DNA of 64,000 bases from NCBI GenBank assembly GCA_963741955.1, contig CAVUKB010000005.1, positions 1,184,001 to 1,248,000 on the forward strand. Direction: 5' to 3'. This document shows positions 1-3,614 of the stretch, in pieces. The notes below the pieces were generated by a model. The model ran no database searches. It had not been told where the DNA came from and saw nothing but the letters and a program-made list of their open reading frames with translations. Numbering within the stretch: position 1 is the stretch's first letter; every line of letters starts with the position of its first letter. The DNA is from an uncultured Acidobacteriota bacterium (GTDB lineage: Bacteria > Acidobacteriota > Thermoanaerobaculia > Gp7-AA8). A program made the translations under genes and the position numbers.

Positions 1-288
1 GGCAGAGACGATCACGGTCGACTTCAACTCACCGATGACGCCGGAGACAATGGCGATGAGCAGGAGCTGAATAACGAGAGGATTTTTCAGGCGATGCCCC
101 ATATCGGCCAGGAACCCCAGCCGCTTGAGATGGGGCAACTCGTTCGGACCGTATTCGTCCAACCGACGATCCGCATCTTTGGCCTGGAGCCCTTCAATGT
201 TGGTCTTGAGCTTGCTCAACGCCTCCTGAACAGGGATGGCGCAAAGCTCGACCAATTGTCTTTCATGACCGCTCACGGCCTGGGTCAT
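1..288 (-). CDS. N-terminus of a cation (probably Mg2+) transporting P-type ATPase, runs off the window edge
   Basis: Manual translation MTQAVSGHERQLVELCAIPVQEALSKLKTNIEGLQAKDADRRLDEYGPNELP...LKNPLVIQLLLIAIVS matches the GL..RL..YGPNE / NPL cation ATPase N-terminal motif. Not in the ORF track. Confidence 0.75.
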   Translation of the reverse strand, partial: MTQAVSGHERQLVELCAIPVQEALSKLKTNIEGLQAKDADRRLDEYGPNELPHLKRLGFLADMGHRLKNPLVIQLLLIAIVSGVIGELKSTVIVSA

Positions 289-330
289 GGGGATTGGGCT
301 GTCGGAGCTCTTCGAGAAGAGGGGGAATAG

Positions 331-1914
331 GGATCTCCTAACAGGTGTGTAGCAGAGTTCATAGGCCGAGAGGATGGAATGCGATTGCTGACGTACAGAG
401 GAACGCCATTGCGATCAGAGCTTCCGCGGTGTGAAAGCCGAAAGCGCGGTGACTGAGCATTCGGATCTTGTTGTTGCAGCCTTCAGCAACTGCATTCGTG
501 AGTCGATACTCGAAGTAACGGCGGATGCCAGGCCATTTCGCCGCGACGGTTCGCGCGAAGCGAACGAGGGGTTGAATGCGGCTATGAACCGCGGACTGAT
601 ACCAGCGCTTGAACCGTCGATCAGCTTGGCGGACGGACGAGGAGTCATAGATGTCCTGAAAGGATTCCTTGACCAGGTAACTGCGAAAGAGGGTGTGATT
701 CATCCGCGCGAGCTCCGAGAGTTTCGCCTCCTCGGCATCACGCAGGTTCCAGGGGTTCTTCAGGAGGACGAACCGAGTGGATTTGAGAGCGGAGCGCTCC
801 TCGCCGGTGGCCTTTCGCATCTCGTCCCGCCTCACCTGATCGATCGCATTCCCGAGGAGTTGGACCACGTGGAACCGATCGAAAACGACTTCGGCGTTCG
901 GCAGTCGGTCGCGAACAGCTTTCTCGAAGGCCGCGCTCATGTCGATGCTCACCAGACGGATTCGCGCGCAGCGCTCGGGGCCGAGCAGATCGAACAGCCC
1001 GTCGAGAACCTCTGCACTTTTACCCTTCGCCGCCCAGATCATCTGCCCGGTCTCGTGGTTCGTGACCACGGTCATGAACTTCTTCGGCCGCCCCCAGCAG
1101 ATCTCGTCGATGCCGATCCGGGTCAGATTCTCGAGCGCGTTCGGGTCGCGTTTTTCGGCAACCACTCGAGCGGCGATCCGTCCGGCCGTGAGCCAGCTGA
1201 CCTTGAAGTACGCCGAGACCGCGGTTTGATTGGATCGCTGCAGAAACCAGGCAAGCTCGTCTTCGAACGCGCGGGTGAACATCGAACCAGGCCGTGCCCA
1301 CGGAACCGCGGCCGTTCGCACCCCGCAGCGGCGGCAACGCACCCGCGGCAGATCCGCCCGCAGCATCACCCGGCATCCCCAGAGGCCGAGATGACGCCAT
1401 TCGCGATGCTTCATCACCGTTCCGTGAAGCTCGGGAGCAACCCGTCCGCACCCTCCGCACCGCGGACGTCTCCACGTTGGACTCACGTCGAGATAGAGAC
1501 TCCGAGCTTCGAACCGAACCCCGCGAACCGTTACGTTTGCCATGTTGAGCAACTTCCGGAACAATGTCGTCAGGCGCACCGTGCCTGTCCTCCCCGTGTC
1601 TTGGTTTCATCGACTACAGACTACGGGAAATGGGCAGCACGGTTCGCCGATTCCAACCTGCTATCGCTGCTTCGATCTTCACCTCTCCACGAGCAGCGAC
1701 TTTCGGGGCTCCTTCAGATCCTTCCGCGACGGCGGGGCAAGTTGTGGGAACGGCGGAAAACGCGGCGGCCGGGTGGCGGCGTTTTCCGCGGTTTCCACAA
1801 CTTCGCTTTCCGAACGCTTCGGCGAACACCGACTTGCTCCTCGAAAACAGCCGCGTCGCCGTTCCTGCATGCCTCCGACAATCATTCCGCACCTACACAC
1901 CTGTTAGGAGAACC
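331..1914 (-). mobile_element. ISL3-family insertion sequence
   Basis: 22-bp TIRs GGATCTCCTAACAGGTGTGTAG (331-352) and CTACACACCTGTTAGGAGAACC (1893-1914) enclose an ISL3 transposase. Confidence 0.92.
359..1579 (-). CDS. ISL3 family transposase
   Basis: 406 aa; zinc finger (CGGC...CRRC), IGIDE, IDMS, DRFHVV and TNAVAEGCNNKI..AFGF motifs. Confidence 0.95.
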   Translation of the reverse strand: MRLTTLFRKLLNMANVTVRGVRFEARSLYLDVSPTWRRPRCGGCGRVAPELHGTVMKHREWRHLGLWGCRVMLRADLPRVRCRRCGVRTAAVPWARPGSMFTRAFEDELAWFLQRSNQTAVSAYFKVSWLTAGRIAARVVAEKRDPNALENLTRIGIDEICWGRPKKFMTVVTNHETGQMIWAAKGKSAEVLDGLFDLLGPERCARIRLVSIDMSAAFEKAVRDRLPNAEVVFDRFHVVQLLGNAIDQVRRDEMRKATGEERSALKSTRFVLLKNPWNLRDAEEAKLSELARMNHTLFRSYLVKESFQDIYDSSSVRQADRRFKRWYQSAVHSRIQPLVRFARTVAAKWPGIRRYFEYRLTNAVAEGCNNKIRMLSHRAFGFHTAEALIAMAFLCTSAIAFHPLGL

Positions 1915-1919
1915 AAAAG

Positions 1920-2210
1920 GGATCTCCTAACAGGTGTGTAGCGCGGGACAGGCACGGCCGGCGGGTGCCCAGCACGCCCTGAAAAGCCTTCCGTCGAAAC
2001 AGGATAAGCGGCAGAAGGGCCAGCAGTGGCGGCGGGAGCTGTGGGAACGCCGGGAAACGCGGTGGACGGTCGGGTGGCGTTTTCCGCGGTTTCCACAGCT
2101 CCGGTTCGGCTCGAACTCCTGATCACGGATTCCCATACCTGGTTCGCCGGAAACCGTCGTCCATGGCGGGTTTCAGCTGTTTTCGAGCTTACACACCTAT
2201 AAGGAGAACC
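1920..2210. mobile_element. Non-autonomous ISL3-type mini-element (MITE), 291 bp
   Basis: Near-identical TIRs to the adjacent IS (GGATCTCCTAACAGGTGTGTAG...TACACACCTATAAGGAGAACC); no transposase. Confidence 0.85.
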
Positions 2211-2318
2211 AGAAAAAGATGATGCACACCTCGCAACGGTCCGGAGATGTCAATCAGGTAAGGCTCAAAGCGAGCAAAGCCGTGGACCTCAATGCCACAT
2301 ACCTGAGGGACCAGCCGC

Positions 2319-3614
2319 TCAGAACGGCTTCTCCAGCGACTCCGACTGTGGCGTGAACAGTCGAGCCCCCTCTTCAGTGATCACCATGTCGTCTTCCAGG
2401 CGAACCCCGAACTCGCCGGGGATGTAGATACCGGGTTCATCACTGAACGTCATTCCCGGCTCCGCGGCGATGCTCGTCTTCCAGCCGAACATGTCGTTCT
2501 TCACCAGGTACGGCCACTCGTGCCCATCCATTCCGATGCCGTGTCCGAGCCGGTGGCTGAAGTACTTGAATCCGGGGCCGTATCCCGCGTCGACGATCAC
2601 CTTCCGCGCCGCCGCGTCGATCGACTCGAGCGGTGCGCCAGGCTTTGCCGCCTTCAGCGCCGCATCCTGCGCACGCCGGACGATCCCGAAGACCTTCTTC
2701 ATCTTCTCCGTCGCCTTCCCGAGGACGAACGTGCGTGTGATGTCGGACTTGTATCCCTCGACCGTGCAGCCGTCGTCCACCATGATGATCGTTCCTTCGC
2801 CGATCACCTGCGGCGTTCGCGACCCGTGCGGGAGTGCGGTGTACTCACCGGTCTGCACCGACGCCTCTCCCGGAAATCCGACGCGGTCGTACGCGAGTCC
2901 GATCAGGCGCGCGAAATCGTGCTGCGTCATCCCCGGCTCCATCGAGTGGTAGACGGCTGCGTATACCTTCAGCGTCGCGTCGTTCGCGAGCTGCATCAGC
3001 GCGAGCTCGTGAGCGTCCTTGATCATCCGGCATCCCGCCGTGACCGGCGTCCCGCTGACCACCCGCGCCTGCGGCGCCGCTGCGGCGATCCCGTCGCTGA
3101 AGACGAACTTCGCCGTCTCGTCGATGCCGATCTTTCCGGTCGCAAGACTGCGGTCCTTCAGGCCGTTCGCGACGAGCGCGTACGGACTCTCGTCCTCCTG
3201 CCAGGTTCGGACGTCCGCCTTCGCGCCTCCGAACGGACCCTCTGCGATCTGCTCCCGCGCGCGCTCCTCTTCGAAGAACGGACAGACGAAGAACGGATCA
3301 CCCTTCCGCGGCACGACGCACGCGAAAAGCCGCTCGCCGCCCCACCATCGGATGCCGGTGAAGTAGAGAAGCGAGGTCCCCGGCGTGAGGACCAGCGCGT
3401 CGATCTTCTCCCCCGTCATCAGGCGCCTCGCCTTCTCGATGCGCCCCCGCCGCTCCTCTGCGTTGATCGGCGTGGCCCGCTCCTTCATCGAATGCAGCGA
3501 CGCGATCGGCCCGGGGAGTTTCTCTTCCCTCGCGTCCTCTCCCGCCGCGAACGCCGGTGCCCTGGACAACGCGACCAGCGCCGCCGAGGCAGTCAGGAAC
3601 TTCCGTCGATTCAT
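2319..3614 (-). CDS. Tat-exported Xaa-Pro peptidase (M24 family)
   Basis: MNRRKFL twin-arginine signal; SDITRT, HRLGHGIG.DGHE, EPGIY, GVRLED motifs. Confidence 0.93.
   Translation of the reverse strand: MNRRKFLTASAALVALSRAPAFAAGEDAREEKLPGPIASLHSMKERATPINAEERRGRIEKARRLMTGEKIDALVLTPGTSLLYFTGIRWWGGERLFACVVPRKGDPFFVCPFFEEERAREQIAEGPFGGAKADVRTWQEDESPYALVANGLKDRSLATGKIGIDETAKFVFSDGIAAAAPQARVVSGTPVTAGCRMIKDAHELALMQLANDATLKVYAAVYHSMEPGMTQHDFARLIGLAYDRVGFPGEASVQTGEYTALPHGSRTPQVIGEGTIIMVDDGCTVEGYKSDITRTFVLGKATEKMKKVFGIVRRAQDAALKAAKPGAPLESIDAAARKVIVDAGYGPGFKYFSHRLGHGIGMDGHEWPYLVKNDMFGWKTSIAAEPGMTFSDEPGIYIPGEFGVRLEDDMVITEEGARLFTPQSESLEKPF

Follow-up and report, generated by a model that had tools for sequence, protein, structure and literature searches.

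The window, as the whole 64,000-nucleotide stretch analysed here is called (contig CAVUKB010000005.1 of an uncultured Acidobacteriota bacterium, positions 1,184,001 to 1,248,000), contains an insertion sequence (IS) of the ISL3 family and, next to it, a non-coding mini-element with ISL3-type terminal inverted repeats (TIRs), and both carry the same imperfect hairpin. This hairpin belongs to a family of fold-back modules that had not been listed before; they are strand-specific, 56-80 nt in length, and sometimes branched, and the family is common to unrelated IS families and not specific to ISL3. Judged from its sequence, the module is built like the basal unwinding module of a chromosomal origin, with DnaA-trios, a spacer, and tandem DnaA boxes. 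The original prediction had considered the hairpin a candidate for a structured RNA encoded by the element, or for a required cis site, in ISL3; the architecture points instead to a single-stranded DNA hairpin that would bind DnaA.

Hairpin 1 (1739-1803, + strand) lies in the non-coding end of the IS and hairpin 2 (2035-2102, + strand) in the mini-element, where the original prediction had placed them, and both were recovered as inverted repeats and by folding with RNA and DNA parameters. The arms of hairpin 1 (1739-1766 and 1776-1803, 28 nt) are 89% complementary, and those of hairpin 2 (2035-2060 and 2077-2102, 26 nt) 85% complementary. When the + strand is folded as RNA, it reaches -52.3 kcal/mol (hairpin 1) and -47.9 kcal/mol (hairpin 2) and is far more stable than shuffled sequences (z -8.0 and -5.7, respectively; equalled by 0/200 shuffles), while the minus strand reaches -40.9 and -34.5 kcal/mol. 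With DNA parameters, the corresponding values are -30.5 and -23.3 kcal/mol for the + strand and -26.1 and -18.6 kcal/mol for the minus strand. The mismatches are read as G.U (in DNA, G.T) on the + strand, as had been proposed, and the compensatory change from T-A to C-G (GTTGTGG/CCACAAC vs GCTGTGG/CCACAGC) is present. The loops, previously described as different, do differ in length, but they are both G-rich and of the GGYGG type and hence not unrelated. The distance between hairpin and TIR, given as 111-113 nt, amounts to 111 nt in the IS and 108 nt in the mini-element when measured from the end of the hairpin to the tip of the TIR.

The hairpin is real and under selection, as the original prediction had inferred. 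In a MAFFT alignment of 31 hairpins, both sides had changed in 14 of 21 pairs and paired cells amounted to 94%, with a covariation score of 0.400 compared with 0.166 in shuffles (0/500 reached 0.400) and at most 0.124 in slid controls. The strand that corresponds to the + strand of the window, designated strand H, was the stabler one in 51/51 distinct hairpins, by a mean of 9.9 kcal/mol. The same 51 hairpins contain 148 G.U pairs and only 2 A.C 1x1 mismatches on this strand, which indicates that one strand is the working strand; this result does not depend on the orientation chosen, because no single hairpin has its wobbles divided between the two strands. A role in cis is argued for most strongly by the comparison of the mini-element with a homologous element in the genome G050 (L037:1387-1677), whose TIRs are identical to those of the ISL3 element of that genome. 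Both elements are 291 bp long and share the same layout, and they agree at 59/69 positions of the hairpin and at 18/22 and 19/22 positions of the two TIRs, while their spacers are 36-38% identical, which is the level of shuffled sequence (17 and 21 of 100 shuffles were as good). These two elements of the MITE type (miniature transposable elements with inverted repeats), from different genera, therefore have only TIRs and hairpin in common, and the hairpin has been kept between otherwise randomised sequences.

On strand H, read 5' to 3', the module opens with three to five in-phase trinucleotides (TAG, CAG, CGG, TGG, or TCG), which a GC-rich spacer of 4 nt separates from two units resembling DnaA boxes, TGTGGGAAN and, after it, GYGGRAAAC; a loop rich in G and the complement of units and spacer complete it. 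In hairpin 1, the units are TGTGGGAAC (1743-1751) and GCGGAAAAC (1753-1761) in the 5' arm, and GTTTTCCGC (1781-1789) and GTTTCCACA (1791-1799) in the 3' arm; in hairpin 2, they are TGTGGGAAC (2040-2048) and CGGGAAAC (2051-2058), followed by GTTTTCCGC (2079-2087) and GTTTCCACA (2089-2097). The mini-element carries the tail CAG CAG TGG CGG CGG (2021-2035, + strand) and the spacer GAGC (2036-2039), and its tail-spacer-TGTGGGAAC geometry is identical to that of origin modules. Hairpin 1 is preceded by a weak DnaA-trio-like tail, CGA CGG CGG (1727-1735, + strand), whose phase was set by the family pattern, and is an atypical copy in that its spacer has 7 nt. The three-nucleotide phase is evident across the family: among the 51 model-derived hairpins, G occupies positions -6, -9, and -12 in 43, 40, and 40 copies, with Y at -8, -11, and -14. 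For 66 metagenome hairpins, retrieved with a search pattern from which the tail was absent, G is found at -5, -8, and -11 in 42, 40, and 39 copies and A at -6, -9, and -12 in 37, 24, and 38 copies, the commonest trios being TAG (38), CAG (34), and TCG (26).

The same order and phase were observed in seven Acidobacteriota dnaA-dnaN regions, namely those of the source genome, a metagenome locus (L404), and five further Acidobacteriota, where (TAG/CAG/TGG/TAA/TCG)n is followed, after a spacer of 4-5 nt, by the box TG[T/C]GGAAA. L404, whose intergenic region reads TAGTAGTAGTAGTAG-GGCC-TGTGGAAA-TGTGGAAAAC, was a match of the metagenome pattern outside any IS. The dnaA-dnaN spacer of the source genome contains TAG TGG TAG-TCGAC-GTGGAAAAAC together with TGCGGAAAA-type boxes that resemble the inner hairpin unit, and TTTTCCACA, TGTGGAAAA, and TGTGGAAT are located upstream of dnaA. 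The units of hairpin 1 match DnaA-box variants of this origin region; the 3'-arm unit GTTTCCACA is one position off the TTTTCCACA box, with two mismatches allowed, and equals the 5'-TTATCCACA-3' given in the relevant part of PMC8287927 at 7/9 positions. As that source describes the basal unwinding system, its order, polarity, 3-nt phase, and 4-nt spacer are the same as in the hairpin module, and the box sequence of the module matches the hosts' own dnaA-dnaN origins. DnaA oligomers are described there as requiring boxes plus a 5' tail encoding trios, and in the assays reported, the boxes must be duplex and the trio tail on their 5' side single-stranded, an arrangement that folded strand H would also present (PMC8287927). 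Unlike oriC, the module lies within transposons and its boxes are followed by their own inverted complement, spacer included, so that a single strand can form duplex boxes. It also differs from the origin in its trios, which are G-richer (often CGG and TGG), and in the G of the 5'-arm box, which gives G.T wobbles.

An alternative is a host-factor site in duplex DNA, in which the four boxes would be bound by DnaA as double strands and the hairpin would never form; as has been proposed for the single DnaA site of Tn5 ends, the bound DnaA would then assist the transpososome in assembling, set the time of assembly, or act as a repressor of the transposase. The match of the box-like units to origin boxes and the subterminal position of the module agree with this explanation, as does a precedent in Tn5, whose outside and mosaic ends are described with a DnaA site, DnaA being named among co-opted host factors (PMC3347997). 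However, the compensatory changes extend to the spacer and the outer stem, which are not box positions, the wobbles all fall on one strand, and the in-phase, single-stranded-type trio tail is one-sided. None of these features is needed for duplex binding, and a duplex site is regarded as unlikely.

The distribution of the module was studied with two covariance models, R1, built from five hairpin variants, and R2, built from the 31 aligned hairpins. The search model was built on GGGAA-type hairpins, and diverged versions such as the hairpin of the IS481-like locus L114 are therefore missed. The unpublished genome G022 (loci L042 and L113) supplies 1/31 sequences of the model alignment and one IS481-like positive, with no claim resting on it alone; matches in G196 and G105 were left out. 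For the source genome, 150 of 2659 first-look candidates were scored with R1, and 22 places were found among them, of which 19 are in ISL3 copies, one in the mini-element, one in an IS256-family element, and one near an IS110-type fragment. The IS256 place (C4:179134-179192) lies 7 nt past the stop codon of a single-copy transposase and within the TIRs of that element, and that on contig C6 is situated 310 nt 3' of the IS110-type transposase fragment. Outside this genome, matches were obtained in 46/151 related genomes with R1 (E<=0.01) and in 14/151 genomes sampled phylum-wide with R2 (E<=1e-4), where the multi-copy cases had 12-22 identical copies. In draft genomes, many matches are no more than about 100 nt away from the end of a contig (L093-L099, L107, and others), which fits multi-copy IS breaking the assemblies and implies that draft copy numbers are underestimated.

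Mapping of TIRs and Pfam typing of the flanking open reading frames (ORFs) placed the hairpin at a subterminal position inside the element, 13-111 nt inside the TIR, and enclosed by TIRs in IS481-like, IS256, and ISL3 elements. In three subgroups of ISL3, it is found between the left TIR (IRL) and the transposase start, with strand H antisense to the transposase and pointing outward, as the original prediction had read for the two window hairpins. In IS481-like elements, it follows the stop codon directly, 13 nt inside the right TIR (IRR), with strand H antisense. IS3 elements carry it in the 3' tail of orfB (antisense) or in the 5' leader (sense), IS256 elements past the stop codon (antisense) or in the 5' leader (sense), and IS21 elements past istB (antisense). 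A pattern scan of metagenome contigs returned at least 120 matches; 80 loci among the matches listed were typed by Pfam on their two longest ORFs (139 ORFs). The nearest type was IS3-type in 17 loci, IS256 in 11, IS21 in 9, IS110 in 6, IS481-like in 5, and ISL3 in 1, while 8 had rve-only or HTH-only ORFs, 1 had only a DDE_Tnp_1 ORF 437 nt away, 1 was the chromosomal origin, and 21 had no transposase among the two longest ORFs. IS110 elements probably carry the hairpin as well. A pattern scan of viral contigs gave no match.

The presence of one module in IS481-like, IS3, IS256, and IS21 elements, and probably in IS110, contradicts its original assignment to ISL3. An ISL3-specific structured RNA, or a cis site for the ISL3 transposase, would account for the position on the 5' side of the transposase in three ISL3 subgroups, but it is scarcely credible for a module that recurs in five or six unrelated transposase families and is missing in 13-14 of 19 ISL3 loci. 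The variation between 5' and 3' positions among subgroups of IS256 and IS3, the nested and branched forms with a hairpin within a hairpin, and the GTAG or CGTC found directly 5' of the stem in some copies could alternatively suggest a selfish palindromic element in its own right, REP-like or mobilised in trans, which inserts into tolerant non-coding parts of IS and resembles origins by chance or descent. Against this, all 22 places found among the 150 candidates scored in the source genome are in or beside an IS or MITE, in agreement with the original view that the motif is not a free repeat outside IS; hairpin variants track IS lineages; and neither flanking duplications nor clean empty sites were seen. 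No association with HUH tyrosine transposases turned up, although no search was aimed at them, and size and copy number are unlike those of REPs as characterised in the part of PMC3733652 concerned. A selfish origin of this kind is considered very improbable.

Comparison among transposase families provided a further indication. For each family, the loci returned for the 151 relatives were scanned with R2 (match at E<1e-3), after 3/30 IS481-like loci (duplicate copies) and 11/30 ISL3 loci (within-genome duplicates) had been left out. The hairpin was detected in 10/27 IS481-like, 8/30 IS256, 6/30 IS21, 5/19 ISL3, and 3/30 IS3 (HTH_21) loci, compared with 1/30 DDE_Tnp_1 (IS4/IS5-like), 0/30 IS630, and 0/24 IS66 loci. 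The sole DDE_Tnp_1 match is 78 nt 3' of istB in the same locus and belongs to the neighbouring IS21, and the source genome has at least 19 DDE_Tnp_1 matches without hairpin. Pooled, this corresponds to 32/136 loci (ISL3, IS481-like, IS3, IS256, and IS21) against 1/84 (IS4/5, IS630, and IS66), with a Fisher p of ~1e-6 that overstates the difference because related genomes are not independent samples. The positive families are listed as circle-forming by copy-out-paste-in, IS481 not being named in the passages concerned (bioRxiv 10.1101/2023.06.07.543989; PMC3299598). The distribution of the hairpin thus tracks the transposition mechanism, and no cut-and-paste family in the sample yielded it.

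A link between circle formation and DnaA is suggested by two descriptions in the literature. The figure-eight of IS3, IS21, IS30, IS256, and ISL3-type elements is described as being converted into a circle by host replication (PMC3299598), and at the A site of the ABC primosome, according to the account in PMC6127211 (citing Masai et al. 1990), a single-stranded DNA hairpin with a DnaA box lets DnaA load DnaB, followed by priming. On the basis of these two accounts, we propose a module whose role would be to bring DnaA to the strand that is displaced or circularised. We put the chance at about even that the hairpin is a single-strand element of DnaA boxes and DnaA-trios which recruits DnaA during replicative circle formation. 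More tentatively, circle-forming IS may carry a portable mini-origin, in which the hairpin on the displaced or circularised strand would recruit DnaA, the replicative helicase, and primase; this wider version is possible rather than probable. Copy-out-paste-in transposition of IS and MITEs would expose strand H as single-stranded DNA, which would fold and present duplex DnaA boxes beside a single-stranded trio tail. Host DnaA would then bind the hairpin and load the replicative helicase and primase, and host replication could turn the figure-eight or the displaced strand into a double-stranded circle. Where strand H points inward, the module is on the strand whose 5' end is that IS tip, and this strand would be displaced first if replication entered from that (recipient) end, a step that we infer.

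Several observations weigh against this single-strand DnaA reading. The middle base of the trios is G in 22-23/51 and A in 15-16/51 model-derived hairpins, and neither window copy (CGG, CAG, TGG) has three or more middle-A trios within 16 bp of the box; the published DnaA-trio rule, in the part of PMC8287927 that sets it out, stresses the middle A. The window IS copy has just two to three weak trios and a spacer of 7 nt (1736-1742) instead of 4. The 5'-arm boxes have G where the origin boxes have A (TGTGGGAA vs TGTGGAAA), and a loose trio-spacer-box regular expression is unspecific in this GC-rich genome (14 matches vs ~9 expected). In addition, no hairpin was detectable in 104/136 loci of the positive families, and a full ISL3 element of G050 with matching TIRs has none, which indicates that the module is accessory and not essential. 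The orientation of strand H is also mixed: relative to the nearest end of the element, it is outward in ISL3 but inward in IS481-like, IS3, IS256, and IS21 (by IS group, 7 inward vs 1 outward, binomial p 0.07). Finally, a terminator-like T-rich tract (at least 6 T in the 14 nt past the hairpin) is found in 14/50 cases on strand H, compared with 1/50 on the other strand.

The last two observations would also be accommodated by a role as RNA, either as an inward terminator or insulator against transcription reading into the element, or as a 5' or 3' structure of a transcript, sense or antisense, that tunes transposase expression, similar to RNA-OUT of IS10. The very stable stem with its G.U pairs, the clear T-rich tracts in IS21 and some IS256 lineages, and the inward direction of strand H in 7/8 IS groups are consistent with such a role. 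As for features of the RNA-OUT type, hairpin 1 is situated 160-224 nt upstream of the transposase start codon, and one weak promoter-like site (1537-1565, + strand; TTGCCA, 17 nt, AACAAT), the sole sigma-70-like match in 300-2350, reads antisense over the transposase start toward the hairpin; its conservation in G025 is uninformative because it lies within conserved coding sequence. However, neither window hairpin shows the GC stem followed by a U tract that defines an intrinsic terminator, and the terminator consensus scan called neither; the module is kept in MITEs, where there is no gene to regulate; and it was not found at the IS4/5, IS630, and IS66 loci sampled, which would gain equally from insulation. 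An RNA role also leaves the in-phase trinucleotide tail and the box-like units unexplained, and no Rfam family matched: in a search of window positions 1-3000 with E up to 10, the best results were miRNA models at 17-25 bits, with cut-offs of 77-128. Taken together, this role appears rather unlikely.

The proposed single-stranded DnaA hairpin shares features with several known systems. Like the A site as described in PMC6127211, the module is a strand-specific single-strand hairpin with a DnaA box in the stem (the DNA folds of strand H given above being those of such a hairpin), and its proposed role would be helicase loading and priming on displaced DNA. Unlike the A site, it has two boxes per arm and a trio tail and occurs naturally in IS of Acidobacteriota. 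The ends of Tn5/IS50 similarly have a site for the host initiator in the transposon end region, whereas in the IS module this is predicted; the account in PMC3347997 concerns one duplex box in a 19-bp end of a cut-and-paste element, and the IS module has four box-like units in a fold-back located 13-111 nt inside the TIR of circle-forming families. Strand-specific imperfect DNA hairpins near transposon ends are also described for IS200/IS605 and REP/RAYT systems (PMC6006769; PMC3733652). Those systems are presented as using HUH tyrosine transposases, unlike the hairpin-bearing IS, whose enzymes are of the DDE or DEDD type in five or six families, and REPs are 20-40 bp, extragenic, and high in copy number with a GTAG/CGTC tag, while the module is 56-80 nt long and has the tag in some copies only. 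The complementary-strand origin of phage G4 likewise has hairpins on single-stranded DNA that direct priming, and primase is described as starting at a CTG 3' of the hairpins with no need for DnaA (PMC6783573). A G4-type primase origin was considered for the module and rejected, as the conserved CTG of the module (C 44/51, T 47/51) marks the stem's 5' foot and is not 3' of it.

If the mini-origin version is correct, the module would be the missing link between the figure-eight made by the transposase and the host replication that yields a double-stranded circle. A literature search, with most subscription journals outside its reach, returned no account of how the replication machinery reaches the figure-eight and no description of a hairpin shared across IS families or present in ISL3 MITEs. 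To our knowledge, no DnaA-trio-type module has been reported outside chromosome origins. Excised circles, or the transferred single strands of conjugative elements, might also be replicated in this way. A module that occurs within circle-forming families, is kept in non-coding MITEs, and did not turn up in any cut-and-paste family sampled would offer a concrete DNA element that can be mutated, together with a named host protein. The proposal predicts that IS modules follow the DnaA-box dialect of the host lineage, and such tracking could account for the range of hosts in which an IS family occurs and could be of use in locating origins and active IS in phyla that are uncultured.

The IS that carries hairpin 1 is 1584 bp long (331-1914, minus strand), as delimited by its TIRs and by its copies in the genome. 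Its transposase gene (359-1579, minus strand; 406 aa) matches Pfam DDE_Tnp_ISL3 (4.6e-72, 243 bits) and the ISL3 zinc ribbon and HTH domains, Zn_ribbon_ISL3 and HTH_Tnp_ISL3 (41 and 30 bits). The 22-nt TIR arms, IRR (331-352, + strand) on the 3' side of the transposase and IRL (1893-1914, + strand) on its 5' side, are 95% complementary. By BLAST, the genome has 18 full-length copies at >=99.7% identity, 12 of which are surrounded by identical 8-bp direct repeats, target duplications of this length being an ISL3 family trait; the IS has been recently active in this genome. Close homologues of the window transposase were found in 5/41 genomes only, a transposase scan gave 2 loci among genome contigs and none among metagenome contigs, and blastn of window positions 1600-2210 against PLSDB gave no match. 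The degenerate IS copy at C9:112132-113466 (L003), 97% identical over 1372 nt, has lost many G residues in its leader and hairpin region and has an altered TIR, which could reflect decay or a local problem of assembly quality.

The mini-element (1920-2210, + strand; 291 bp, TIR arms at ~1920-1941 and ~2189-2210) is present in one copy in the genome. Its left TIR is identical to that of the IS at 23/23 positions, and BLAST against the genome aligned only positions 1-23 and 111-187, that is, the TIR and the hairpin; the original statements that the surroundings are not alignable and that the mini-element is no simple deletion derivative of this IS copy were thus upheld. Like a MITE, it is short, non-coding, and bounded by the TIRs of an autonomous element; it is single-copy, and its flanks, ACCAAAAG and AGAAAAAG, agree at 6/8 positions without a perfect target duplication. 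It is joined head to tail to the IS across a 5-bp spacer, AAAAG (1915-1919, within the junction 1893-1941), and at C4:8709-11881, two full IS copies are arranged in tandem, 5 bp (GATGT) apart. Neither the IS and the mini-element nor the C4 tandem copies have the 8-bp target repeats that are usual, and the head-to-tail arrangement resembles circle junctions that have integrated, or else tandem dimers.

Other candidate explanations for the hairpin were examined and discarded. Protein coding through it is contradicted by loop lengths that differ by non-multiples of 3 and by frames that disagree between copies. A Chi-like site was rejected, with GCTGTGGG occurring 72 and 83 times on the two strands against 190 expected per strand. 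Pairing of the tail elsewhere in the IS found no partner at <=3 mismatches in seven elements, and concerted evolution within a genome is at odds with the three different variants in G011. Candidates for a clean empty site also failed: the nearest hairpin-less IS481-like relative, L114, has a diverged hairpin at the same place, and the hairpin-less IS256 (L177) and ISL3 (G050) elements show no sharp indel or duplication.

Variation in form and context was observed among the loci. Branched modules, which form a three-way junction through an additional box-type hairpin nested after the inner one and before the outer 3' arm, were found at L174, L176, L178, L063, L055, and many metagenome loci (e.g., L358, L371, and L379), and L063 resembles a deletion derivative of the branched form. 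A subgroup comprising L069, L074, L075, L076, and about 15 metagenome loci (e.g., L351, L387, and L405) has extra TTTCC-type units outside both stem feet (gcgatttccAAGG ... CCGtcatttcc), these units being additional box-like half-sites on either side of the hairpin. The IS481-like elements L112, L113, L114, L115, and L117 are followed just beyond IRR by short tandem repeats (6-8 nt), and L057 has related short repeats on both sides in inverted orientation. At L074 (G264:C7:408407-408465), the hairpin has on one side a gene for an ATPase of type IV secretion and on the other a gene for a coupling protein of the TraG/TraD type, the context of a conjugative element, where incoming single-stranded DNA needs priming.

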